Made by a program: the position numbers and the translations under genes. The notes beneath the pieces were generated by a model, which was given only the letters and a program-made list of their open reading frames with translations, did not search any database and was not told the DNA's origin. Below, piece after piece: positions 1,998-36,998 of a DNA stretch of 36,998 bases (position 1 is the stretch's first letter; every line of letters begins with the position of its first letter). Origin of the DNA: Nitrospiraceae bacterium (GTDB taxonomy: Bacteria > Nitrospirota > Nitrospiria > Nitrospirales > Nitrospiraceae); assembly GCA_046715215.1 (NCBI GenBank), contig JBKJZK010000047.1:1-36998 (forward strand). The letters are read 5' to 3'.

Positions 1998-3401
1998 ATG
2001 TCGCTCGTTACACGGAGTTCGACAATTCTCCGCGCCGCTGTGCTGATCTCGCTCCTGCTGCTTTCGACGACCGCCACGGTCGTCGGGCAAGTGTCCAACC
2101 AGTTCCCGGGCGGCTGGGTGGAAAAACAAGGGACGGCCACGCGCGCGCGCTATACCGCTTCGCAGATTCAATCGTTCGTCCCCCCGACACGCGGCGCCTT
2201 CACGTTTCCCGCTCCCTACAATACAAAAGCCATCCGCATAACGGAGGCATCGGATTGCGGCGGAACGGATTGCGTCGCCAATGTCGGCTATTCATATTGG
2301 CGGAATACCAACGCGCACGAGGGCAGCAACGACATGTGGATTTTCCTGGGGTTGAACAGCGCCAAGGGAGGGTCCGGCCCGACGCTGTTCAAACTGGACA
2401 AGACCACCGATGCGGTGACGAAGATCGGCCCGCTCTTTCCGTCCATCAGCAGATTCTCCGGTCGAAGCGGTGACGGATGGTACTTCAGCGCCTCGCGGGC
2501 GAACAAACTCTATGTGAACGACGGTCCGAAGATGCTGCGCTACGACGTCGTCTCACATCTCTTCGACACGGTATTCGACATCACGTCACAATTCGGCAGC
2601 AACCGCTATATCTGGCAGATGCACTCCAGCAACGATGATTCGGTCCACAGCGCCACACTGCGCGTCTTGGACACCGCTGAGGATCTGGGCTGCCTGGTCT
2701 ACAGCGAAACGACCCAGCAGTTTTCGTTTTTCGCCAAGCAGGGCACCTTCGATGAATGCCATATCGACAAAAGCGGGCGGTATCTGATGATTCAGGAGAA
2801 TATCGACAATCAAAACGATATGGAGAACGTCTTCATTGACTTGCAGACTGGAGTCCAGACTACCGTGTACGATCAAAACGGCGGCGTGTCCCATGCCGAC
2901 ATGGGCTACGGCTATGTCGCCGGCTCAGACAATTGGAATTCGTTGCCGAATGCCTCGATCACCTGGACATTCGGACCGACGTGGACGAAGGGACCGCCAG
3001 TCTTTTACAATGTGAATTGGAATGTATCGCAAGCCGGCCACATCTCTCATGAGAACGCCAACGCTTCCCTCTCGATGAAGCAGCAGTACGCCTGTGGCAG
3101 TAACGCTGATCGCGGTGCGGTTCAAAACGAAATGGTCTGTTTTCGACTCGATGTCTCCTATGACCAACTTGTTGTGGCGCCCATCATGACGAATCTCGAT
3201 GCACTCGGCGGCGGGACCGACTACGCCAAGACCCCGAAGGGCAATCTTGATATCAGCGGCAAGTACTTCATCTGGACGACCAATCTCGGCGGTAATCGGC
3301 TGGACGCGTTTCTGGTCAAGGTTCCCTCCCAGCGGTTGACGGCGCCCGGGGACGGCACTCCGCCCACAGCACCCCGCAACCTGAGAACGAACCGAGGGTA
3401 G
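1998..3401 (+). CDS. Secreted protein of unknown function (possible beta-propeller-like fold)
   Basis: ATG at 1998 preceded by GGAGGAAGG. N-terminal signal peptide MSLVTRSSTILRAAVLISLLLLSTTATVVGQ. Long uninterrupted ORF. The C-terminal YFIWTTNLGGNRLDAFLVKVP resembles TolB/PD40-type propeller blades (weak inference). Confidence 0.8.
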   Translation: MSLVTRSSTILRAAVLISLLLLSTTATVVGQVSNQFPGGWVEKQGTATRARYTASQIQSFVPPTRGAFTFPAPYNTKAIRITEASDCGGTDCVANVGYSYWRNTNAHEGSNDMWIFLGLNSAKGGSGPTLFKLDKTTDAVTKIGPLFPSISRFSGRSGDGWYFSASRANKLYVNDGPKMLRYDVVSHLFDTVFDITSQFGSNRYIWQMHSSNDDSVHSATLRVLDTAEDLGCLVYSETTQQFSFFAKQGTFDECHIDKSGRYLMIQENIDNQNDMENVFIDLQTGVQTTVYDQNGGVSHADMGYGYVAGSDNWNSLPNASITWTFGPTWTKGPPVFYNVNWNVSQAGHISHENANASLSMKQQYACGSNADRGAVQNEMVCFRLDVSYDQLVVAPIMTNLDALGGGTDYAKTPKGNLDISGKYFIWTTNLGGNRLDAFLVKVPSQRLTAPGDGTPPTAPRNLRTNRG

Positions 3402-3473
3402 CTTTTCCGCTTAGAATAAATGGCCCGCTGCCCTCGCCTCAACCGTCGTCATTAGCGGAAGGAAAATCGCTAC

Positions 3474-3497
3474 GCAGGCTTCGCGTCCGAAGCCTGC
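3474..3497 (-). terminator. Perfect 10-bp stem / 4-nt loop hairpin between convergent gene ends; likely intrinsic terminator of the EPS operon
   Basis: GCAGGCTTCG-cgtc-CGAAGCCTGC. It lies 10 nt downstream of the GT2 stop (3508). On the minus strand it is followed by gtagcgATTTTCCTTCC (a partial U-tract). It could also act on the plus-strand gene ending at 3401. Confidence 0.5.
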
Positions 3498-3507
3498 TGA
3501 TTCCGCA

Positions 3508-4743
3508 TTACGCAGCCGGCCGCTGTTCATCAGCCGCTTCCTGTGGCTTCAGTTCCGGCTCGCTAGGCCGCTGTGTTCTGTCCCATGTCGGCCTCGCCAT
3601 GCCGAACAGGAATTTAAGACAGCCCACGGCGAGCGCGGCATTCAACAAGAGAAAATATCGGGCTGCAATGGCCGCCTTACCCACGACCGGAATCACGCGC
3701 AATCGTCCGGCCGCGAGACCCAAACCATACACCGTGGCCTGCATGAGCAAGAGCGCCTGAAAAACCCGGCGATTGAGCAGCCATAGATTGGCAGCCATCG
3801 CAGTGAACAAGATCCAGGGACCCAGTAACCGGAATGCCTTGTGCGACCAATAGGCCAGCGCGACGGTCCCCCACTGAGGGAGAAGCAGGCGCCAGGTCTC
3901 GACCAGCACATGGGCAATTCCTCCCCCGGTTCTGACGCGGCGGTGGAATTCGTCGGCCACATGTGTCGGAGTGACTTGCCACGCCCGCGCCCCAGGATGA
4001 AGCACCACATCGCCTTTCGTGTGCAGGCGAATGAGCATGGGTTCAAGCAAGTCGTCGGCCATGGTTTGAGGAGGCAACGGCTGATAGTCCTTCCGTCTGA
4101 TCGCATAGATCGCCCCGCTCGCGCCGAGTCCCGCGCCGACCTGCGATTCGATCGTCTTTAAGAACATTTCGTATCGCCAATAGAGCCCATCCGGATTGCC
4201 GGAGGTCTGCGGACTTCGAAGCTCCAGCTCTCCCCCGATCACGGCGGCGGTGGGATAACGATAGAAACCCGTCATCAACTGCGTGAGGGAATCAGGATAG
4301 AAGACGGTCGCCGCATCGGTGAACACGAGATATTCCCCGGTGGCTTGCGCCACGAGGTCGTTGAGGACGCTCGCCTTGCCTCTCCGGTCGGCGAAGGCCG
4401 CAAGCTGGACCTTGGCGAACCGATACCGCGCGACCTCCTCATTGGTCCTGTCGGTCGATCCATCCGAGCCGATCAGAATCTGGAGGTGGTCCTTGGGGTA
4501 ATCCTGCTCCAGCAGATTCTGTATTCGACGCGAGATGACCGCTTCCTCGTTATGCGCGGAGATCATGACCGTGACGGTCGGCCACCGGCTCGGCCCGCCC
4601 GAGGCCGTCTTCAAAGGCGCCCTCAGTTTGCCGACAAGCCACAGTACAACCGGATAGCCGAGGTACGTGTACACGAGCAACCCCAGCGCCAGCAGCGTAA
4701 AGATGGCAGACACAGTATCGAATTCTGAGAGGAACGAATGCAT
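3508..4743 (-). CDS. Membrane-anchored family 2 glycosyltransferase
   Basis: N-terminal TM helix, then the GT-A core WPTVTVMISAHNEE...LQILIGSDGSTDRT...GEYLVFTDAAT, then C-terminal TM helices. Last gene of the minus-strand cluster. Confidence 0.9.
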   Translation of the reverse strand: MHSFLSEFDTVSAIFTLLALGLLVYTYLGYPVVLWLVGKLRAPLKTASGGPSRWPTVTVMISAHNEEAVISRRIQNLLEQDYPKDHLQILIGSDGSTDRTNEEVARYRFAKVQLAAFADRRGKASVLNDLVAQATGEYLVFTDAATVFYPDSLTQLMTGFYRYPTAAVIGGELELRSPQTSGNPDGLYWRYEMFLKTIESQVGAGLGASGAIYAIRRKDYQPLPPQTMADDLLEPMLIRLHTKGDVVLHPGARAWQVTPTHVADEFHRRVRTGGGIAHVLVETWRLLLPQWGTVALAYWSHKAFRLLGPWILFTAMAANLWLLNRRVFQALLLMQATVYGLGLAAGRLRVIPVVGKAAIAARYFLLLNAALAVGCLKFLFGMARPTWDRTQRPSEPELKPQEAADEQRPAA

Positions 4744-5721: not shown

Positions 5722-7377
5722 TTATTGCGTAGCCGCTCTATGGGCTTGGGTGTGCCGGACACAGATGCTCTCAGTGCGAGCAGCGATTCCAAGCGCGGCA
5801 CAGAGGGACTTTGCATCCACTCCGGGGACTTCTTGAGTGGCCGGGCCGGATGGGATCAAGCGGTAATCCCCTTCCGACCAATTCGCGAACGGCACCGCCT
5901 GCACCGATTCGGGGAACACATTACCGTCCGGATAGCGCTGCGCATCCCCGCCGATGATGAGGTTATGCGTGACCACGGCGCCCGGAAAATGCCGTTCCAA
6001 TGTCGAGGTTCCGACGCCGGTGCCGGCTCCTTCCATGCCGTATTCGTTGTGCGGCGTGATGTTGGACCGGTAGACAAATCCTTCATGCGGGTCTCCCTCG
6101 GCCATGAGAATATGCCCGGTGTGGAAGGCGGTGTTGTGCTCGATGACGATGTCCTTCGTGCCCCGCAGCAGCTGAAACAGCCTTCCCTTCCCTCCCCAAC
6201 GAGGTCCATTGATATCGTCGAAGATATTGTTCCTGATCAGTATCCGTTTCCCTTGTTCGCTGGGCGGATGACGGTCGTCGAATCCCATGATGTTGACGGC
6301 GCTCGGACTGTGCCGAACGATGTTGTTCGTGAACGTGACGTCTTCGATCACCGCCCATGGCGACCGCCCCTCCTCGTTCCGCACCGTGAACGTGATGCCA
6401 AATCCGTATCCGGGGTGCTGCCAGTTGTATTCGAATATGTTTCCGTCCACCAGCACGCGGCGCGCGTTCTTCAATTCGAACAGAATCTTCACCTGCCAGT
6501 TGCTGCCGTCGTGCTCCGGCTCGCCGGGCTTCCAGGCAAGCGGTTTGGCGACATGATTGCCCCGAATTTCGATGTCGGAGGGCACGAGACCGAGGATCGA
6601 CGGGTCGCCTCCCCCGAAGAGAAGGTTTTCTGCCGCTCCCTGCAGGAAATTATTGACAACCTTGAACGGGCCGCTCCCGCCCCACCCGGCCACCGCCTGT
6701 GAGTCCTGCCCTACTTCCTTGAAATCCGACACATACGAATCGATCACGGCCAGATGCCGGCCGTTCATCGCGATCCCGCGACGTGCGCCTTTCTTCGGAT
6801 CTCCGTGCACAAAGCAGCGGTCCAGAATGATGTGATGCGGCAGATCCTCGACGGATCGGTCCGTATTGTTGCCGAGCATCACCAGGTCGAGGAGGAGGGT
6901 CTCCTCCGCCGGTTTCATCTCGATCCCGATGAAGCGGAAGTGATGCGCGCGCTTGTGCGCAATAATGACGCCGTACCGGCTGGATACGAGCTTGGGCATT
7001 TTGGCGGCGTGCGACGGCTGCACTCTGGTTCCCGGCGAGGGAAACTCCCGCCCCACGGCGCTGGAACGGACGGTAATCCATCCCGATCCCTGTTTCTTGT
7101 TCGGGAGCGTGAACGGGCCTTTGTAGACGGTACCCGCTTCCAGCACGATCTCATCTCCGGGCTGGGCCTCATCGAGCGCATCCTGAAAATCGCCGCCGGA
7201 CGGCACGGGGAGCGTGCGGCCCGGCGAAGGTACGATCGCAGTATCGACGAACTCACGGGGCAATTCCGGCCGCGCGGCACTCAGCCCTTCTCCCTGAATC
7301 GCTGCGGGCGCAAGACCAGGGCTCAAAACCAGCACGGCCAGCACGGCTGTCTGAATGGTCGTGAATAGACGTCTCAT
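5722..7377 (-). CDS. Secreted right-handed parallel beta-helix repeat protein (candidate polysaccharide lyase, hydrolase or epimerase)
   Basis: Signal peptide MRRLFTTIQTAVLAVLVLSPGLAPAA. Repeated hydrophobic/N-rich rungs (VVNNFL.., IRGNHV.., VDGNIFE.., FTNNIVR.., IRNNIFD.., IEHNTAF.., THNLIIGG). The ATG overlaps the upstream stop (ATGA at 7374-7377). Confidence 0.8.
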   Translation of the reverse strand: MRRLFTTIQTAVLAVLVLSPGLAPAAIQGEGLSAARPELPREFVDTAIVPSPGRTLPVPSGGDFQDALDEAQPGDEIVLEAGTVYKGPFTLPNKKQGSGWITVRSSAVGREFPSPGTRVQPSHAAKMPKLVSSRYGVIIAHKRAHHFRFIGIEMKPAEETLLLDLVMLGNNTDRSVEDLPHHIILDRCFVHGDPKKGARRGIAMNGRHLAVIDSYVSDFKEVGQDSQAVAGWGGSGPFKVVNNFLQGAAENLLFGGGDPSILGLVPSDIEIRGNHVAKPLAWKPGEPEHDGSNWQVKILFELKNARRVLVDGNIFEYNWQHPGYGFGITFTVRNEEGRSPWAVIEDVTFTNNIVRHSPSAVNIMGFDDRHPPSEQGKRILIRNNIFDDINGPRWGGKGRLFQLLRGTKDIVIEHNTAFHTGHILMAEGDPHEGFVYRSNITPHNEYGMEGAGTGVGTSTLERHFPGAVVTHNLIIGGDAQRYPDGNVFPESVQAVPFANWSEGDYRLIPSGPATQEVPGVDAKSLCAALGIAARTESICVRHTQAHRAATQ

Positions 7378-8531: not shown

Positions 8532-8559
8532 AGTCCACCTTTCAGCTACGCACGCCCGA

Positions 8560-8577
8560 CGTTTCACGCTTCACGAA
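8560..8577. repeat. CGTTTCACG/CGCTTCACG word repeat in the AsnB-GT intergenic gap
   Basis: cgtttcacgcttcacgaa. The same word family occurs at 10643-10665, 22224-22232, 30614-30699 and 36338-36346. Confidence 0.6.
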
Positions 8578-8591
8578 CCCAGCAGAAGTGT

Positions 8592-10532: not shown

Positions 10533-10597
10533 GATGCTAGACCTCCTCCATGGCGATAGTGTGATCTCCGATTACTTGACCAGAACGGGGGAAGAAA

Positions 10598-10620
10598 TTC
10601 TGAGTTCTGAGTTCTGAGTT
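10598..10620. repeat. Tandem heptamer TTCTGAG x3.3
   Basis: ttctgag ttctgag ttctgag tt, in the intergenic gap between GT4 (stop 10661) and AsnB-1 (start 10532). Same word as at 16379-16440 and 26741-26840. Confidence 0.85.
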
Positions 10621-10642
10621 GTCGGAATCCGAAAACGCCTCA

Positions 10643-10665
10643 CGCTTCACGAACGACGCTTCACG
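10643..10665. repeat. CGCTTCACG direct repeat (x2, 14-nt period) overlapping the GT4 stop codon
   Basis: cgcttcacgaacga cgcttcacg. The second copy contains the TGA (10661-10663) of the GT4 gene. Confidence 0.7.
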
Positions 10666-16334: not shown

Positions 16335-16378
16335 CAGGCGGTTCCTCCATCAAGGGTAAATCAACAGGGGGGAGTGGG

Positions 16379-16440
16379 GAGTTCTGAGTTCTGAGTTTTG
16401 AGTTCTGAGTTCTGAGTTAGTTCCGGACAACTCAGAACTC
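16379..16440. repeat. Tandem heptamer GTTCTGA x5.7 whose last units pair with a downstream inverted copy (12-bp perfect stem, 10-nt loop)
   Basis: ga gttctga gttctga gttttga gttctga gttctga gttag ttccggac AACTCAGAACTC. Stem is GAGTTCTGAGTT (16407-16418) with AACTCAGAACTC (16429-16440). On the plus strand it is followed by TTTTCTC. Confidence 0.9.
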
Positions 16441-16456
16441 TTTTCTCGCCCAATCC

Positions 16457-17152: not shown

Positions 17153-17236
17153 GCAGCAAACGCATCTACTATCGTGGTGGTGGGACCATTGGAAGCGGTG
17201 CCGATAACCGATATACGCAGACGGCGCGGGCCCAGG

Positions 17237-19550: not shown

Positions 19551-21019
19551 GGATCAGTCCTCGGCATAGAAGAAAGCCGTCGAGACATCCAACCTACTAA
19601 GACCTCCCGTTCGCTTTTTCGAATCAACCCGACGGTCCAGGCCAACGGAATGTAGCTTCCGCCGTAGATCACACTAATGACGACCAAGCGGACAAACGGA
19701 GACGCCGGCCACTGCAACGCAACCCACAGCGCCGGCAGGGACGCGGCGATCGTCACCGCGCCGATCCCTCTCAGCTCACGCCAGGGAAGAAGACGTCCGA
19801 TGCCGGCGTGCCAGCAGGTCATCATCCTCGCCAGCCCCATCGCTTTGCCGACCGCCAGTGCCAGCACGGTGATGAGCACGGCGCCGACCAATCCCATCCC
19901 GGTCACGAACCAGTACATCCCCCCGGCCACGATGGCCAGCCGCGCGATGTTGATGGCCAGCAGAAACCGCATCTGAGCGTACACGCGCAGCAACCCGTCC
20001 ACGGGGATCGTCGCGAAGAGAATCGCGATCGACCACACCATGAAGACCGGCACGCTGGCCGCATAGGTCTCGGTGAAGAGAAAGACGATCAGATCCTGCG
20101 CCACAATGAGCAACAGCGCCACGAGAGGAAAAAACACCAGGGCCAACTTCCGCACGGTGTCGTGCCACATGGCGATGACAGCAGTATCGCGCCCGTCTCG
20201 TATGGCCTGCATCATGCCGACCATCATGACGTTGACGACCGATGTGCTGACGACTTCCACCAGCGGGACCTGGAGACATCCGACCGAATACACCGCGAAC
20301 GTGGCTGCATCGAAGAGAGAAGACACCACGTACTGGTGCAACGTTTCCTGCCCCGTTTGAAACAACACGTAAAACGCGAACGGCAAACTGTAGGCGGCCT
20401 GCCGAAGCAACAAAGGCCAGTTCGGGCGCAGAGCGGCGCCGAATTGCTTCCTGCAATACCAGAGGGTCGTTCCGAGACGGATCACCGCGAAGACGATGGC
20501 GCCGTACAAAATACTGGCCAATGTCTGAAACAGAAGCACGGGGGCGGCGATCAGCACCGCGCGAGCGGTATCGGACAGGCCGTAGGACGCGGCGGCCGTG
20601 CCGTATCGATGACGGGCCGTCATCACGATCTCCAGCACGTAGGACGCGAGCATGAAGAGGAAAAACACCGCGATCAGCGGCATGAGGGGAGCCAGTGCGG
20701 GATTGTTCATCCATCCGGCAATGGCATCTCCCCCGGCAAAGAGCAGTGCCGCGCCGAGTAGGCCGATGCCCCCCAGAACCAAGATCGAATTACAGACATA
20801 CCGGCCTCCGTCTTCGCCTGCGCCTGGGAGAAAATAGAACAGACTCTCGGACATGCCCACCTGTGCGAGATTTAATATGGTCCCGTAGAGCAAGAACACC
20901 TGCTTGTATGTCCCGAACTCCTCTTGCCCGAACATCCGCACAAGAATGAGAGGCAAGAGGAATAAGACGACATACCCGAGCGTCCTTCCAGCCATGATGG
21001 TCAGTGCGGGTTTAAACAT
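19547..21019 (-). CDS. Polysaccharide biosynthesis protein / oligosaccharide flippase (MOP superfamily, Wzx-like)
   Basis: Polytopic membrane protein with about a dozen hydrophobic helices. I chose the ATG at 21019 (MFKPALTIMAGRTLGYV), which overlaps the deacetylase stop by 8 nt. The ORF extension to 21166 would lie inside the deacetylase gene. Confidence 0.85.
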   Translation of the reverse strand: MFKPALTIMAGRTLGYVVLFLLPLILVRMFGQEEFGTYKQVFLLYGTILNLAQVGMSESLFYFLPGAGEDGGRYVCNSILVLGGIGLLGAALLFAGGDAIAGWMNNPALAPLMPLIAVFFLFMLASYVLEIVMTARHRYGTAAASYGLSDTARAVLIAAPVLLFQTLASILYGAIVFAVIRLGTTLWYCRKQFGAALRPNWPLLLRQAAYSLPFAFYVLFQTGQETLHQYVVSSLFDAATFAVYSVGCLQVPLVEVVSTSVVNVMMVGMMQAIRDGRDTAVIAMWHDTVRKLALVFFPLVALLLIVAQDLIVFLFTETYAASVPVFMVWSIAILFATIPVDGLLRVYAQMRFLLAINIARLAIVAGGMYWFVTGMGLVGAVLITVLALAVGKAMGLARMMTCWHAGIGRLLPWRELRGIGAVTIAASLPALWVALQWPASPFVRLVVISVIYGGSYIPLAWTVGLIRKSEREVLVGWMSRRLSSMPRTDP

Positions 21020-22193
21020 GCTGCCTATCCTGGGCTTCGCGTTGCTGTCGGGACGCGATCGGCGCGCCCGCCCCGACGAGCGGCTCGACTTTACGTCCCG
21101 GTGCAGCGTCTCTTCCGTTATGATTGTGCGCACAGGGAGACCAGAAGTCATACAGACGGTTCGCATGGCAACTCATGAGGGCCGGTGAAAATTTTCCGGC
21201 CGAATCCGCGCATGATCGTTCCCACAGCAATGTGCGGGGAATCGTCAGGAAGGGATGCCTCGGATCGCGGCGGAGACAGGTTCCGTAACCAAAGCGATAG
21301 CCCGCATCGGCGACCGCCGACACCACGGCAGTGTTGAAGCGCCCATCCGGATACGCAAAGTGCTCGACCGGCCGTTTCAGCTTGTCCCTGAGCGTCAACA
21401 TCGATCCCACCGTCTGGTCGGCCACCTGCTCGACACTTTCCTCAGTAAGGAGCGCATGCGTCTGCGTATGAGATCCGATCGTCATGCCGGAATCGGCCAT
21501 GGACCGCACCATCTCCCAGTCCAATGACTGCATTTCAGGATAGGCGTCGTCGTCGATGCGGCACACCGTTTCCAGCGCTTCAATCACACGCCGCAACTTG
21601 TTCTGGGTGAGGGTGGTGAACAGCCACCGCATTGTGCGGAAGGCGTCGTCGAGCCGTCTGCCGCCGTTACCGGCGTCGAGATGGACGTCCTTCGCGTCGA
21701 GCAAGCGTCGAAATCGCTCTTCGGAATGGCCGAGGACAGGAAGGACTTTTTCAAGAAGCAAATACGTCTTGTCATACAGTTGAAGCTCCAGACGTCCTGT
21801 GGCTTCAGTTACAATAAAGATGCCTGCGGGAATTCCTTTTCGCTTCAACACAGGCAAAGCATGGTGATACACCCCGGCATAACCGTCGTCGAAGGTGACG
21901 GCCGCCGAGGGCTGCGCGAACGGCTCCCCCCTCTCCAACTGAGCGCCAAGTTCGTCCAAGGCGATGAAGCGGTACCGACGCCCGATCCACTCCAACTGAC
22001 GCTCCAGCATGGCGAGGCTGATCAGGTTCGGAAGAATCGCCCGTCCGACGTGAGCACGGACGTCTTCCACGACCGCGTGATAGCCGAGGACCAGCGGCAG
22101 CGCCTTGGTCCCCGTCCATGACGCGACGGCGCGATCGGCGCCCGTCCATCCCAGCGCTGCGGCTACCCCGGTCTTGACGAGAGTTTTGAGCAT
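21012..22193 (-). CDS. Polysaccharide deacetylase (CE4 / NodB homology domain)
   Basis: AAVTFDDGYAGVYHHALPVLKRKGIPAGIFI (TFDDG Asp-Asp motif) and MTIGSHTQTHALLT (His-His metal motif). Confidence 0.9.
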   Translation of the reverse strand: MLKTLVKTGVAAALGWTGADRAVASWTGTKALPLVLGYHAVVEDVRAHVGRAILPNLISLAMLERQLEWIGRRYRFIALDELGAQLERGEPFAQPSAAVTFDDGYAGVYHHALPVLKRKGIPAGIFIVTEATGRLELQLYDKTYLLLEKVLPVLGHSEERFRRLLDAKDVHLDAGNGGRRLDDAFRTMRWLFTTLTQNKLRRVIEALETVCRIDDDAYPEMQSLDWEMVRSMADSGMTIGSHTQTHALLTEESVEQVADQTVGSMLTLRDKLKRPVEHFAYPDGRFNTAVVSAVADAGYRFGYGTCLRRDPRHPFLTIPRTLLWERSCADSAGKFSPALMSCHANRLYDFWSPCAHNHNGRDAAPGRKVEPLVGAGAPIASRQQREAQDRQHV

Positions 22194-22224
22194 GATCGGA
22201 GACGTGATAAGGGATGGGTTGATC

Positions 22225-22399
22225 GTGAAGCGTATCTCAAAGGACTATTGACGATTGATCCATTGGACCATTGGACCATTGACTGAAGAATTGAAGATGT
22301 GTGCATTGAAACATTCTCTCATTGGAAGGCTCCGCAAATCGTCAATGACGCAAATGAATAAATCGTCAATTCCGCAGACAATGAATCAATGCATGCACC
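22225..22399. repeat. ~175-bp intergenic element, copy A (second copy at 36177-36331)
   Basis: Shares colinear blocks with copy B: gtgaagcgtatctca, ccattgactgaagaattg, cattggaaggctccgcaa, tcgtcaatgac, aatgaata, atcgtcaattcc, aatgaatcaat.catgcacc. Copy A also has the octamer CATTGGAC x3 (22261-22283). It fills the gap between stop 22410 and start 22193. Confidence 0.85.
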
Positions 22400-22409
22400 A
22401 GCGATGTGG

Positions 22410-24050
22410 CTACGTTCCGCCGCGTCTCCAAGCAATGGCCCGATCCAACATGGCTTGTGGAAGCAGTCGGCGGGCGGCCGACTTGGCTCGGTCATCGAGT
22501 GCCACCGCCCCGCGGCAGAGGACGCCTCCGGCCGAGGGAGGGAACAGCTGCAGCCTGACCAGCTCATGCGATGCGCTCGCCCACAGCGATTTGTACGTCT
22601 CGGTCCCATGCAGGAGGTCATAGTCCTCGACCCCTTCCGTCACCGCTTGCTTGATCGCCAACCCCATCGTCACGAGGCCGACGCTGTGCTGCCGATAGGC
22701 AGGATCGAATCCCGACTGATAAAAATAGAAGCGGCGTCCGTAGAGAAATCCGTACAGCGCGCCAAGGGGACGGCCGTCCAGCCGCAGGATGAACAAGCGA
22801 AGCCAGCCGCGCTCCAGCGCCGTGCGGCTGAACGAGTCATGAAACGCCTGCATCGCCGGGGACCGCAACGTCTGGGAACCTCCCCGCTCGTCCCATCGAA
22901 GATTGTGGAGGTCGATCAAATTCTGCAGCGCCTCCCGCCGCTGGTCCTCCTTCTCCACGACGTCGAAGGTCAGCGTGCCGAGCTTATGAAGATTTTTTAG
23001 CCGTCGATTGAAATTGTATCGATGCTGCGGTCCCAAGGTCGCGAGGTACGACTCCCAGGTGTGGCCCTTCAAGGGAATGTGGGGACAGACATCGATCGCA
23101 CTGCGCTGCACGGTCCACCCGGACTGCTCGAGTTCCTGCACCAAACCGGTAGCCAGCGCGCCTTTCGCATGGAGATGACTCAGCGTCATCACCGGTCGCC
23201 GGCCGTTAAAAAACTCCGCCAGACTTCGGGATACTTGTGGCTCATGCCCGCGCCGGATCATGACGTCCAAATAGTCAGACCCGACAAGGCCGGTCCCGAG
23301 AAACTGCAGGGATCGGCGGGGCATGAAGCCACCGAACCGGTGGCGCTCGCTGAAGAGCGGCGCCAGTCCGAGCAGCCGACTGTGGCGCCGGACAGTCGCG
23401 AGGGCGAGCGTTCGTCCGGTGGAAAAATGCCGCCACCAGGTCTCGAGCCACTCTCTTGTGAGAAACAGGCAATCGGCATCGCTGTCGCTCAGGAGTTCGG
23501 TCCATTCTTCCGCCAGATGCGGAAGCCGGCCTGGGTCTTCGATCAAGGTCACCAAGAGATTATCCGTCGACCGATAGGACAGCGCATCCGCTTCCTCGGG
23601 AGGTTGCAGGCAACTGTAATCCGCGATATCGATGTCTTTTCGAACCACCCTCGCCGGAATGCCCGCGACGACCGTTCTCGGCGGCACATCCTCCAGCACG
23701 ACGGCGTTCGCCCCGATCACCGATTCGGCGCCGACGGAAATGGGCCCGAGCACCTTGGCGCCTGCCCCGATGACACAACGGTCTTCGATCACCGGCACTC
23801 CCCAGCGGCGAGACCGCCCGCCGACCGTCACTTGATGGCCGACCGTGACGAGCTTGCCGATTTTGCACCGCTCGTGCAGCACGACTCCCATGCCGCCATA
23901 CGCGAACTCCGTTCCCTCGCCGATCTCCGTGGACATCGGAACAGCCGCATTGTAGAGCACGCGAATGGCTTGATACATCAACGTGGGAATCATTGGAATG
24001 CGGCGTCGATAGCACCAATGACCGACTCGATAGAAGGACAGAGCATTCAT
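22410..24050 (-). CDS. Fusion protein: N-terminal hexapeptide-repeat (LbH) serine-O-acetyltransferase-like domain + C-terminal FemAB/CelD-like GNAT-fold domain (paralogue 3)
   Basis: N-terminus FYRVGHWCYRRRIPMIPTLMYQAIRVLYNAAVP..IGEGTEFAYGGMGVVLHERCKIGKLVTVGHQVTVGG...VIGAGAKVLGPISVGAESVIGANAVV has a CysE/EpsC-like layout. From ~residue 170, LAEEWTELL..FLTREWLETWWRHF...QSGFDPAYRQHSVGLV...YDLLHG matches the two stand-alone paralogues. ATGA overlap with the upstream GT4 stop. Confidence 0.85.
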   Translation of the reverse strand: MNALSFYRVGHWCYRRRIPMIPTLMYQAIRVLYNAAVPMSTEIGEGTEFAYGGMGVVLHERCKIGKLVTVGHQVTVGGRSRRWGVPVIEDRCVIGAGAKVLGPISVGAESVIGANAVVLEDVPPRTVVAGIPARVVRKDIDIADYSCLQPPEEADALSYRSTDNLLVTLIEDPGRLPHLAEEWTELLSDSDADCLFLTREWLETWWRHFSTGRTLALATVRRHSRLLGLAPLFSERHRFGGFMPRRSLQFLGTGLVGSDYLDVMIRRGHEPQVSRSLAEFFNGRRPVMTLSHLHAKGALATGLVQELEQSGWTVQRSAIDVCPHIPLKGHTWESYLATLGPQHRYNFNRRLKNLHKLGTLTFDVVEKEDQRREALQNLIDLHNLRWDERGGSQTLRSPAMQAFHDSFSRTALERGWLRLFILRLDGRPLGALYGFLYGRRFYFYQSGFDPAYRQHSVGLVTMGLAIKQAVTEGVEDYDLLHGTETYKSLWASASHELVRLQLFPPSAGGVLCRGAVALDDRAKSAARRLLPQAMLDRAIAWRRGGT

Positions 24051-26661: not shown

Positions 26662-26740
26662 GGCATCAACCCGGACTATTCATGACGGTTCGTCGGCCCC
26701 CAATTCGAGCGAGACTTGCGAGACGGGACGGGAGAAGAGC

Positions 26741-26840
26741 TTTTGAGTTCTGAGTTAGAAACGGAGAAGAGAGGCGAGACGAGCAAGGGTTCAAGGTCCG
26801 ACGTTCGAGGTTTTCTGAACTTCGAACTCAGAACTCAAAA
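26741..26840. repeat. Perfect 16-bp inverted repeat built from the GAGTTCT word, 68-nt spacer
   Basis: TTTTGAGTTCTGAGTT (26741-26756) and AACTCAGAACTCAAAA (26825-26840), in the gap between the sugar transferase stop (26863) and the Wzy-like start (26661). Confidence 0.9.
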
Positions 26841-26862
26841 CTTCGTGCCGCGCCTGTCTCGT

Positions 26863-30602: not shown

Positions 30603-30613
30603 TCTCTCCTTAA

Positions 30614-30699
30614 TCGTGAAAGACGTGAAAAGTGAAACGTAGGGCTGCCGACCGCTCTTTCTCAGAAACCTTTCACGTTTGACGATTCACGTTTCACGA
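30614..30699. repeat. Inverted arrays of the CGTGAAA word flanking a 30-nt spacer
   Basis: Left arm tcgtgaaagacgtgaaaagtgaaacgt (30614-30640); right arm tttcacgtttgacgattcacgtttcacga (30671-30699). The arms are imperfectly complementary and fill the OPX-PCP intergenic gap. Confidence 0.8.
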
Positions 30700-30701
30700 A
30701 T

Positions 30702-31340
30702 CTACGGCACGACGATGATGTCGCCCGGCTGTAGAAAGAAGTTCTCCAAGGCGCCGTTATTCGACACGACTTTGTTATAGTTGAACGGAATCTGCCGCAT
30801 CGTTTTGCCTTCGGGACGAAGGACGACGATCCGGCCCCGCCCGGCAAACTCGCCGAAACCCTCTGCCATCGCCAGAATATCCAGGACCGTCGCACGTCCT
30901 TTGAGTTCGTGCCGGCCGGTTTTTTTGACTTCGCCGATCACGGACACTTTGAAGCTGTGCACTTCGCGCACGATGACCGACACCTCCGGCGACGGTATAT
31001 ATTCGGCTAATTTCTTGAGCAGCACACTCCGCAGCTGCGTCGGCGTCAATCCGGCCGCCTGCACGTCGTTGACGAGCGGCAGGGAGATTTTTCCGTCCGG
31101 CCTGACCGGCACGGTCCGGCTGATGGCGACGTTGTTCCAAACGGAAATATCGAGCACATCCTCCGGCCCGATCCGGTAATCGCCGACTTCCTGCGCTTGA
31201 GTCAACGAATGATCCGCCTCGGAGGGCGAGGCCGAGCTTGAGGAACCCGAGTTGGACGAAACCGAAGGCGGATCCGCCGCAAAGCACGGCGAAGCGCCGA
31301 GACAGCCGATAGCCAGATAGATGAACATGCGTGGTATCAT
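30702..31340 (-). CDS. Short polysaccharide export protein (OPX; Poly_export + SLBB domains, Wza-like but lacking a C-terminal OM-spanning helix)
   Basis: Signal or lipoprotein-like N-terminus MIPRMFIYLAIGCLGASPCFAA. Poly_export motif YRIGPEDVLDISVWNN...VRPDGKISLPLVNDVQAAGLTPTQL. The protein ends after one SLBB-like region (~212 aa). ATG at 31340 has GGGGAGGAG upstream. Confidence 0.9.
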   Translation of the reverse strand: MIPRMFIYLAIGCLGASPCFAADPPSVSSNSGSSSSASPSEADHSLTQAQEVGDYRIGPEDVLDISVWNNVAISRTVPVRPDGKISLPLVNDVQAAGLTPTQLRSVLLKKLAEYIPSPEVSVIVREVHSFKVSVIGEVKKTGRHELKGRATVLDILAMAEGFGEFAGRGRIVVLRPEGKTMRQIPFNYNKVVSNNGALENFFLQPGDIIVVP

Positions 31341-34911: not shown

Positions 34912-34966
34912 GGCACGGGAGCGGGCTGCGGCGTGAATCGTTAGACGTGACACGTGGGAACACCGT

Positions 34967-35051
34967 ATCTGTTGATCTAATGATCTGACGATCTGGTGAG
35001 TCATAGGATTCGGCCCATTCATCAGATCGACAGATCGACAGATCAACAGAT
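34967..35051. repeat. Imperfect 29-nt inverted repeat built from the octamer CAGATCGA (25/29 complementary), 27-nt loop, between convergent genes
   Basis: Left arm atctgttgatctaatgatctgacgatctg (34967-34995); right arm cagatcgacagatcgacagatcaacagat (35023-35051). Confidence 0.8.
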
Positions 35052-35107
35052 TCTGAAACTTGCTGACGAGAGACGAACGACGAGATACGCATTACGAGGA
35101 ACGCGTT

Positions 35108-36151
35108 TTAGGTCTCTTTTCTCATAGCGCCGGAGGCCAGCACCGGTTCTACCGGGACAATCTGCGCCATACTTATCGCCTGACGCACCATCTGGTTCGC
35201 ATATCCCCACTCGTTATCGTACCAACTCATCACCTTCACCAGATTGCCGCCGACGACCTGCGTCATTTCCCGGTCGATGATCGACGCCCTCGGATCCTGA
35301 ATGATATCCGACGACACAACGGGATCTTCAGTCACCCCCACCACTCCGTTGTACCGATCGCTTCGGGCTTCTTGGAGAAACAGCGCATTGACCTCCGCAG
35401 CCGTGGTCTCTCGTTCCGTGACCATCACGATATCCGAAATCGAGCACACAGGAACCGGAGCCCGCACTGCCGTGCCGTCAAATTTTCCCTGTAGTTGAGG
35501 AAGCACTCTTATAGTGGCGCGAGCAGCCCCGGTGGTAGAAGGAACCAGATTGGACGCCCCGGCACGGCCACGGCGCATATTCTTATTGGACTTATCGACG
35601 ATCGCCTGGCTGGCCGTGTACGCATGGATGGTATTCATCACCGCCTTCTCCAGTCCCAGGTACCGGCCGATAATTTCGACGACCGGTGCGACGCAGTTGG
35701 TCGTGCAGCTCGCGCACGACACAATCGGGCCGTCGTGCTCGTCGTAGACATTCACTCCATACACGACTGTCGGAATGTCCTCGTCTTTGGCGGGCGCCGA
35801 AAGAATGACCCGTTTCGCGCCCGCGTCGAGATGTTTGGAGAGATCCTCGCGCCGATTGAACGCGCCGGTGCACTCAAAGACAAGATCCACCCCCAAGTCA
35901 TTCCAGGGCAGCCGCGCTGGATTTCGTTCGGCAAGCAGCAGATAAGATCGATCGGCCATCGTCAGCCCGCCGGCGTCCACTTTCACCCGCATGGGATGGC
36001 GCCCATATACCGTATCGTGATTGAGCAGATAGGCAAGATTGTCGGCGGGGATCGTATCGTTCATGGCGACGACCTCCAACCCCGGTGTCGTCGCCAAGAT
36101 TTTGAACGTCGCCCGCCCGATTCGCCCCAGTCCGTTGATCGCGACTTTCAT
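35108..36151 (-). CDS. gap: Type I glyceraldehyde-3-phosphate dehydrogenase
   Basis: MKVAINGLGRIGR (NAD-binding), active-site SCASCTTNCVAPV, and the C-terminal WYDNEWGYANQ signature. RBS GGGAGGAG upstream of the ATG at 36151. Confidence 0.95.
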   Translation of the reverse strand: MKVAINGLGRIGRATFKILATTPGLEVVAMNDTIPADNLAYLLNHDTVYGRHPMRVKVDAGGLTMADRSYLLLAERNPARLPWNDLGVDLVFECTGAFNRREDLSKHLDAGAKRVILSAPAKDEDIPTVVYGVNVYDEHDGPIVSCASCTTNCVAPVVEIIGRYLGLEKAVMNTIHAYTASQAIVDKSNKNMRRGRAGASNLVPSTTGAARATIRVLPQLQGKFDGTAVRAPVPVCSISDIVMVTERETTAAEVNALFLQEARSDRYNGVVGVTEDPVVSSDIIQDPRASIIDREMTQVVGGNLVKVMSWYDNEWGYANQMVRQAISMAQIVPVEPVLASGAMRKET

Positions 36152-36176
36152 GTGATCTCCTCCCAATAGATTCCTT

Positions 36177-36331
36177 GTGAAGCGTATCTCATAGGGCGAT
36201 CGATCCAATGCACCATTGACTGAAGAATTGCAGATGGGTGCATGGAATCTTGGTTGCATTGGAAGGCTCCGCAATTCGTCAATGACCCAATGAATACATC
36301 GTCAATTCCTCAATGAATCAATTCATGCACC
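36177..36331. repeat. ~155-bp intergenic element, copy B (see 22225-22399)
   Basis: Colinear with copy A and in the same orientation, again immediately 5' of a minus-strand gene start (gap, 36151). It is bracketed by tGTGAAGCG (36176-36184) and its reverse complement CGCTTCACG (36338-36346). Confidence 0.85.
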
Positions 36332-36393
36332 GGCTGACGCTTCACGCGCAAGCGCAGCGGATCAGCGATTGCAACAGCAGACTCCCTGATTCG

Positions 36394-36998
36394 TTACGCC
36401 GCTCGCAACCGCTCGGCCATCCGGTCTGTCAGCCGCTGCTTGATCCGATCATACCCGGTCCAAGGATCGTCGCGCAGGCCTCGAAGTCGCTTCGGCACAG
36501 TGGCAACGGTGAAGTGATCGGACTTCAGCTTCGCCGAGAGTTCGTCCCAGGCCAGCGGCACGGACACCGGCGCGCCGGGTTTGGCCCTGGTCGAATAGGC
36601 GGCAATTGCGGTTGCGCCGCGCGCATTGCGCAGATAGTCAATGAAGATTTTTCCCTTCCTGACCCGTTTCGCCATATTTGCAGTGAACCGTTGCGGAATC
36701 GTCCTCACCAGATGTTCAGCCACTGATTTAGAGAAGGCCTTCGCCTCGTCCCAACTGTGGGTCCGTTGGATCGGCGTGACGACATGCAGCCCCTTGCCGC
36801 CGGTCGTCTTGACGAAACTGACCAGCCCCAATTCTTCCAGGAGAGTTCTCGTCAACTGCGCGGCCTCGATGACCTGGTTCCATGGGACGGAGGGATCAGG
36901 GTCTAAATCGAACGTGAGCCGGTCCGGCCGGTCGAGTCGATCGCGAATGGCGCCCCATGTGTGCAATTCCAGCACACCCATTTGTACGAGTCCCAACA
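36394..36998 (-). CDS. ligD: DNA ligase D polymerase/primase domain (NHEJ LigD PolDom), C-terminal part; 5' end outside window
   Basis: ...LTFDLDPDP...VKTTGGKGLHVVTPI...IFIDYLRNARGATAIAAYSTRA... are archaeo-eukaryotic-primase-type LigD PolDom motifs. The ORF runs off the right edge. TAA at 36394-36396. Confidence 0.85.
   Translation of the reverse strand, partial: LGLVQMGVLELHTWGAIRDRLDRPDRLTFDLDPDPSVPWNQVIEAAQLTRTLLEELGLVSFVKTTGGKGLHVVTPIQRTHSWDEAKAFSKSVAEHLVRTIPQRFTANMAKRVRKGKIFIDYLRNARGATAIAAYSTRAKPGAPVSVPLAWDELSAKLKSDHFTVATVPKRLRGLRDDPWTGYDRIKQRLTDRMAERLRAA

Follow-up and report, generated by a model that had tools for sequence, protein, structure and literature searches.

The two similar stretches of DNA that lie just upstream of a polysaccharide deacetylase gene and of gap, in a 36,998-nt segment whose proteins have their nearest matches in Nitrospira (hereafter, the window), are very probably decayed copies of a single dispersed repeat that is lineage-restricted, non-coding, AT-rich and palindromic, a Nitrospira counterpart of the ERIC and Correia elements. 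In the history we envisage, new copies would be made from palindromic source copies and would land in intergenic spacers, mobilized in trans by some enzyme or spread by recombination, as their dispersal and their presence or absence at given sites suggest; once inserted, they would decay by point mutation, slippage of their short words and internal deletion. Copies located inside operons would be co-transcribed as spacer, and there the hairpin may change the processing or the stability of the mRNA, by analogy with ERIC, Correia and REP sequences (PMC10969869).

Two copies at an exopolysaccharide locus

A large cluster of EPS/O-antigen type (Wzy, GT4s, flippase, GNVR, Poly_export and asparagine-synthase-like genes) lies in the window, and its synteny recurs in several Nitrospira contigs; gap and ligD stand at one of its edges. 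The two copies, their internal landmarks and the genes that flank them are as follows.

21012-22193, minus strand: polysaccharide deacetylase gene (Pfam), downstream of copy A and outside the element
22224-22402, minus strand: copy A, refined limits (family HMM, E = 9.6e-57)
22224-22233, minus strand: right inverted end of copy A, ACGCTTCACG on the minus and CGTGAAGCGT on the plus strand
22261-22283, minus strand: octamer word run of copy A, plus strand CATTGGAC CATTGGAC CATTGAC
22320-22337, minus strand: central core of copy A, TTGCGGAGCCTTCCAATG, the apical loop and short apical stem of the consensus hairpin
22410-24050, minus strand: hexapeptide/GNAT acetyltransferase gene (Pfam), upstream of copy A, its stop codon 7 nt away
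35108-36151, minus strand: gap, glyceraldehyde-3-phosphate dehydrogenase (Pfam), downstream of copy B
36176-36346, minus strand: copy B, refined limits (family HMM, E = 8.4e-55)
36176-36185, minus strand: right-hand inverted terminus of copy B, reading ACGCTTCACA on the minus strand and differing from the consensus at one position
36257-36274, minus strand: central core of copy B, also TTGCGGAGCCTTCCAATG (exact 18-mer match)
36337-36346, minus strand: left-hand inverted terminus of copy B, reading CGTGAAGCGT on the minus strand
36394-36996, minus strand: 3' part of ligD (LigD C-terminal part, primase-polymerase domain; Pfam), upstream of copy B

A first-pass annotation of this DNA, made without database searches, had described two colinear stretches in the same orientation, about four-fifths identical, and its description was borne out: a repeat search pairs 22214-22393 with 36166-36329 in three colinear blocks (families D3, D5 and D10), the MAFFT alignment of the copies has a mean column identity of 82% (overall about 80%), the family HMM recognizes both, every identical block that had been named is present, and Pfam confirms the flanking genes. 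The refined limits slightly exceed in width the coordinates first proposed. The window has exactly two matches to the 18-mer TTGCGGAGCCTTCCAATG, where chance alone would give 0.01, and the GC content (42.5% in copy A, about 42% in both copies, versus 59% for the whole window) makes the copies AT-rich islands.

Each copy has departed from the family pattern in its own way. Copy A is without its left inverted end, and its octamer run corresponds to the family consensus plus one 8-nt unit (CATTGGAC); these 8 nt are missing from the other copies, so the expansion reported by the annotation is real, and the extra unit looks like a product of slippage. Copy B, 171 nt in length, keeps both inverted ends and shows two internal deletions, one of 4 and one of 7 nt. 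The candidate third fragment, at 17183-17196, has nothing longer than 9-11-mers in common with the element, and the family HMM does not pick it up at E <= 1; we treat it as chance.

The annotation had also placed the ends of the copies some 25-30 nt before start codons. The distance is indeed 30 nt from copy A to the deacetylase gene and 24 nt from copy B to gap, the GGAGG ribosome-binding site of which falls outside the copy. Both copies lie 5' of minus-strand genes because all of their neighbors are on that strand and the element leaves little else in a short spacer; their position is no evidence for a shared regulation of the two genes.

Dispersal of the family and turnover of spacers in Nitrospira

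Further copies, the existence of which had been left as a point to be checked, turned out to be numerous. A scan with the 18-mer core of one genome per species gave 16 loci, but similarity extended beyond the word only in the Nitrospira MAGs L005, L007 and L011 (82-84% over 130-180 nt); a second scan, of metagenomes with a 25-mer core, contributed 24 further contigs. The HMM built from the recovered copies and run with nhmmer finds 30 copies at E <= 1e-32, which represent about 20 distinct genomic sites after the merging of obviously orthologous contigs. Throughout the genome and metagenome scans the family was seen only in Nitrospira-type contigs, and the plasmids, phages and viral contigs that were scanned gave no match.

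The family consensus, written on the minus strand of the window, is CGTGAAGCGTCAGCCGGTGCATGAATTGATTCATTGTCTGAGGAATTGACGATGTATTCATTGGGTCATTGACGATTTGCGGAGCCTTCCAATGAAACAATGATTCAATGCACACATCTTCAATTCTTCAGTCAATGGTGCAATGGATCAATCGTCAATCGTCCTGCGAGATACGCTTCACG. It measures 182 nt between 10-nt inverted ends (CGTGAAGCGT ... ACGCTTCACG) and has a GC content of 45%; eight copies have exactly this length. In the consensus the two ends pair without a mismatch, and most full-length copies still carry them. Between them are two arms composed of words with an 8-nt period (CATTG in the left arm, CAATG in the right, with ATTGACGAT/ATCGTCAAT motifs), and the center, or loop, is GCGGAGCCTTCC. With single-stranded RNA parameters the consensus folds into one long hairpin of 73 pairs (-79.8 kcal/mol, z = -6.0) and its reverse strand folds at -69.7 kcal/mol (z = -5.9); about seven G-U pairs make one strand some 10 kcal/mol more stable. 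In keeping with a palindrome, the HMM matches every copy on the opposite strand too, and among 14 full-length copies 89.9% of the pair cells are standard, versus 33-47% once the partner columns are displaced by 1-3 positions. The left arm and the core are better conserved than the right arm. This stronger conservation could reflect a function, although helix 6, which is the core, is invariant by ascertainment, the same core having been used to find the copies. There is no room for a hidden peptide gene, against which the annotation had rightly argued: stop codons interrupt all six frames of the consensus and the copies differ by indels of 1, 8 and 45 nt.

All of the recovered copies sit between ORFs, some of them 3' of genes, and their neighbors are varied. 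Those confirmed by Pfam are phoU, a DMT transporter, a Pif1-type helicase, radical-SAM genes, a TPR protein and scpB, together with an FKBP isomerase, an ABC-F gene, HlyD-ABC, phoH-ybeY, a leucyl aminopeptidase and a cation-efflux gene. Relative to co-directional neighbors, the orientation found in the window occurs at about 10 sites and the opposite one at about 8. One 9-kb Nitrospira contig has members of the family in four successive spacers, where two near-identical inverted copies bracket one radical-SAM gene and the spacers after them contain two diverged copies:

L007:2156-2351 and 3325-3524: first two members
L007:5105-5179 and 6360-6486: last two members, with different centers

Contig depths give a rough idea of the copy number. 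In the metagenome runs that include parts of the window, summed contig depth is about 5 on the flanks but climbs to 13-58 within the element, a 3-10-fold increase, and many contigs exit the element into different sequences. In runs X30, X31 and X33 it is 110-400 over a near-consensus copy versus 9-16 on the unique flank; the values from these three runs suggest about 13-32 copies per genome equivalent, a rough figure since it comes from contig depths in mixed samples. The variants encountered include the 8-nt word gain of copy A, internal deletions of 45 and about 95 nt, and 5' truncations. Short forms that have lost about 95-99 central nt, core word included, were observed at L022:151-251 (runs X30, X31 and X34), and because such variants lack the core word, scans for the exact core miss part of the family.

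The junctions of 17 canonical copies show no direct target-site duplication. For this reason we call the element MITE-like and do not file it as a strict MITE, although it has terminal inverted repeats and is small, non-coding, AT-rich, multi-copy and intergenic. We also considered insertion into pre-existing local hairpins and found it unsupported: beyond the inverted ends, flank complementarity is no better in cis (-14.1 kcal/mol) than in trans (-13.7 kcal/mol), so that there is no sign of hairpin targeting, and the non-canonical copies are without flank pairing.

The orthologous spacers of related genomes are occupied quite differently. The contig L042 encodes a gap protein 88% identical to that of the window within the same ligD-gap-GT4-nusG-EPS synteny, yet its ligD-gap spacer is 103 nt long, has a different hairpin and is without the element. 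The acetyltransferase-deacetylase synteny is found again in five groups of relatives, with proteins 77-88% identical, and the spacers that correspond to 22194-22409 of the window are the following.

L043-L045: 115 nt (L043:9886-10000), no element
L046-L049: 97 nt (L046:9904-10000), no element
L050:981-984: 2 nt, no element
L051:60-211: hairpin of GAAGGCT/AGCCTTC words, no element

The family HMM finds no match in 156 kb of sequence from these relatives. Look-ups by exact protein, for the gap and deacetylase products of the window and for the N. moscoviensis homolog, gave no record. There is consequently a presence/absence polymorphism at orthologous sites, but one without alignable empty-site junctions; since the spacers of the relatives cannot be aligned, insertion in this lineage and deletion in the others are indistinguishable. 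About 23 nt from the right end of copy A and the adjoining flank recur in L043 and L045, where they could be the remnant of a deletion. The acetyltransferase-deacetylase junction has been seen to hold the CATTG element, a GAAGGCT/AGCCTTC hairpin, a CGT-word hairpin, another sequence of 97 nt, or only 2 nt, and its content turns over fast.

Elsewhere in the window, too, spacers have hairpins built of other words, and these are themselves dispersed families. A second dispersed motif (...CCCGCATTATTCATGAACACTTCTGCTGCAATCGCCGATCCGCTGCTACGACGAGCCTTCGGCCGGCGGGCTCGCC...) has a partial copy on the minus strand at 36347-36392, abutting copy B, and is also found at L037:11540-11680, L019:520-660, L023:3860-4000, L018:250-400 and L020:1283-1340; it is about 95% conserved among three contigs and does not always adjoin the CATTG element. 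At 30610-30705 there is a hairpin of CGTGAAA/TTTCACG words with a GC-rich loop (-32.7 kcal/mol, z -3.4), another dispersed family with copies 75-88% identical in L031, L037, L039, L028 and L041; single arms of these words lie at 8559-8578 and 10635-10654. Hairpins of GAGTTCT/AGAACTC heptamer words occur at 26720-26850, 16360-16455 and 10585-10620 (z -2.2, -2.5), and the center of the first of these recurs at 80-90% identity in L034, L021/L033, L037 and L030. The strongest fold in the window (-44.6 kcal/mol, z -5.9) is a hairpin with 33-nt arms of GATCTG-type words at 34960-35055, in the spacer between gap and a divergent GT4 gene; only a weak relative was found, in L025.

Decay of the hairpin and alternative readings

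The real copies all fold less well than the consensus. Copy A is the weakest (-48.7 kcal/mol) and copy B among the weakest (-58.4 kcal/mol), and on their own their folds do not surpass those of shuffled sequence (z = 0.13 and -0.9, respectively). Of the 73 pairs in the consensus stem they retain 55 and 54, whereas the best copies retain 67-70. In the four inner helices of 14 full-length copies not one pair has changed on both sides, the departures being broken pairs or G-U pairs, and RNAalifold gives a covariation term of +0.2. Copy A is 86% and copy B 89% identical to the consensus and the two are 78% identical to one another; each copy is in fact nearer to the consensus than to other copies, the star-like pattern of a repeat family. 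The copies are decaying from a palindromic source and are not maintained as structure. The alternative proposed in the first-pass annotation, of a small mobile or a structured-RNA element, has thus divided: a dispersed repeat it is, but the conserved RNA fold for which a covariance analysis had been suggested is unsupported, the inner stem being devoid of compensatory change and the copies drifting from the consensus hairpin.

Some information on transcription is available. None of the RNA runs searched for the window itself contains it. Copies of the family do occur inside metatranscriptome contigs, joined to various flanks, at a depth of 3-4, with DNA carry-over possible; the picture fits co-transcription with neighboring genes, not a discrete abundant RNA. 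In the four copies scanned (A, B, the near-consensus copy of L022 and that of L027) a search with the sigma-70 consensus only revealed no promoter above chance, the single site in L022 being at chance level and partly in the flank, and no intrinsic U-tract terminator exceeded chance in the same four.

An unlikely alternative is that the element is a hairpin maintained by the host, of the REP/BIME or terminator/stabilizer type, which protects the upstream mRNA, insulates cistrons or stops read-through, its spread being secondary. This reading overlaps with that of a decaying dispersed repeat, and the sole difference is whether or not the copies are under selection. Copies do lie within likely operons (phoH-ybeY, HlyD-ABC, acetyltransferase-deacetylase), and the metatranscriptome contigs include element copies together with their flanks. 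Moreover, a hairpin at these spacer positions looks recurrent, since significant hairpins (z -2.2 to -5.9) occur elsewhere among the window's spacers and between ligD and gap in L042, and the deacetylase spacers of L043 (z -0.4) and L051 hold other word repeats. The state of the copies speaks against such maintenance, however: those of the window have lost a quarter of their stem pairs and fold like shuffled sequence, the inner stems are without compensatory changes, there are no U-tract terminators, and the shallow metatranscriptome coverage could itself be contaminating DNA. At the L050 junction, moreover, where the orthologous spacer is only 2 nt, a hairpin is dispensable.

It is highly improbable that the element is a shared cis-regulatory module, in which the ATTGACGAT/CATTG words would serve as operators, or the whole as a portable promoter, that co-regulates EPS modification and gap. 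The idea, which the annotation had put forward as a link between the EPS genes and carbon metabolism, draws on the location of both window copies 24-30 nt ahead of start codons and on their shared orientation, on two direct repeats of ATTGACGAT spaced 22 nt apart and on a strongly conserved ATGAAT-TG-ATTCAT palindrome. The candidate operator region would be

ATTGACGAT-N13-ATTGACGAT / ATGAATTGATTCAT

and known MITEs such as the Correia elements can bear promoters and IHF sites (PMC10969869). Yet a portable sigma-70 promoter should have -35 and -10 boxes and a fixed orientation upstream of genes, and here about half of the sites are opposite in orientation to co-directional genes, some copies are 3' of genes and the sigma-70 consensus is absent from the four copies. 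The neighboring genes are unrelated in function, and the orthologous genes of relatives do without the element. A regulatory link between EPS and gap is thus unsupported, for the element stands beside unrelated genes, in both orientations and also at their 3' side.

Scarcely credible, finally, is a multi-copy structured non-coding RNA, either an sRNA gene family or a conserved leader of the riboswitch kind, for although the consensus fold is long and stable (z about -6 on both strands), one strand folds better through G-U pairs and words of the element are present in metatranscriptomes, the copies have neither compensatory inner pairs nor appreciable covariation (+0.2), lie in mixed orientation to transcription with no promoter or terminator of their own, and appear in contigs that run into different flanks at a depth of 3-4 and not as a discrete abundant transcript. 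Rfam offered nothing relevant, neither for the whole window at gathering thresholds nor around copy A at permissive E-values.

Affinities and significance of the repeat

Among known repeats the closest analogues of this decaying dispersed element are ERIC and the Correia elements, with REP/BIME further off, and it has no sequence relation to any of them. ERICs can face either way within transcribed spacers, and some of them are variants that have lost or gained internal sequence. The Nitrospira element answers to the same description: like ERIC/IRU it is an imperfect, intergenic, non-coding palindrome of 100-200 nt, it is found in either orientation and with deletion variants (45 nt and about 95 nt), its copy number is strongly lineage-dependent, and we know of no transposase for either. 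It differs in its Nitrospirota host, in the absence of any sequence similarity, in its size (182 versus about 127 nt) and in having arms made of tandem 8-nt words. ERICs at the 3' ends of genes can alter mRNA decay (PMC10969869).

With the Correia elements (CREE/NEMIS) of Neisseria it shares a length of about 100-200 bp, terminal inverted repeats, a frequent location just upstream of genes, co-transcription (probable in the case of Nitrospira), and a multi-copy state (more than 100 or tens of copies). Correia elements duplicate a TA target, while the Nitrospira element lacks both promoter consensus and target duplication. The hairpin of the Correia element is cleaved by RNase III in Neisseria, and these elements contain sigma-70 promoters and an IHF site (PMC10969869).

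The likeness to REP/BIME lies in the extragenic palindrome, the lack of target duplication and the mosaics formed with other repeat modules. REP units are about 20-40 nt in size and go together with a RAYT transposase gene, with known roles in the stabilization of intercistronic mRNA, whereas the unit here is one single palindrome of 182 nt. The cyanobacterial STRR heptamer repeats and MITEs such as Nezha are likewise intergenic, with tandem words of 7-8 nt and several small repeat families per genome. The Nitrospira element resembles them in its tandem intergenic words and in the co-existence of several small families in one genome; it departs from the plain tandem arrays of STRR in being a defined 182-nt palindrome with a conserved center, and there is no sequence relation. 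A full-text search of the literature on MITEs and palindromic repeats of Nitrospira yielded no description of the CATTG family.

What this means for the organism is, first, that a tempting inference is removed, that of a regulatory link between EPS modification and glycolysis. In its place a repeat family is documented for the nitrite-oxidizing and comammox-type Nitrospira, organisms that are mostly known from MAGs. Such repeats break short-read assemblies, and metagenome contigs do end at this one; they can also serve as lineage markers, and an element 24-30 nt from a start codon may alter the expression of the neighboring genes. The unusual aspect is the number of hairpin repeat families and their quick turnover at orthologous spacers. 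We would tentatively entertain the possibility that the CATTG element is just one of several fast-turnover, word-built palindrome families that fill the spacers of Nitrospira, that they spread without target duplication by a mechanism that recognizes hairpins (for example, a single-strand HUH-type enzyme or template switching at hairpins), and that they act collectively as intercistronic RNA hairpins. If this were true, they would form a kind of repeat system so far undescribed in this phylum.
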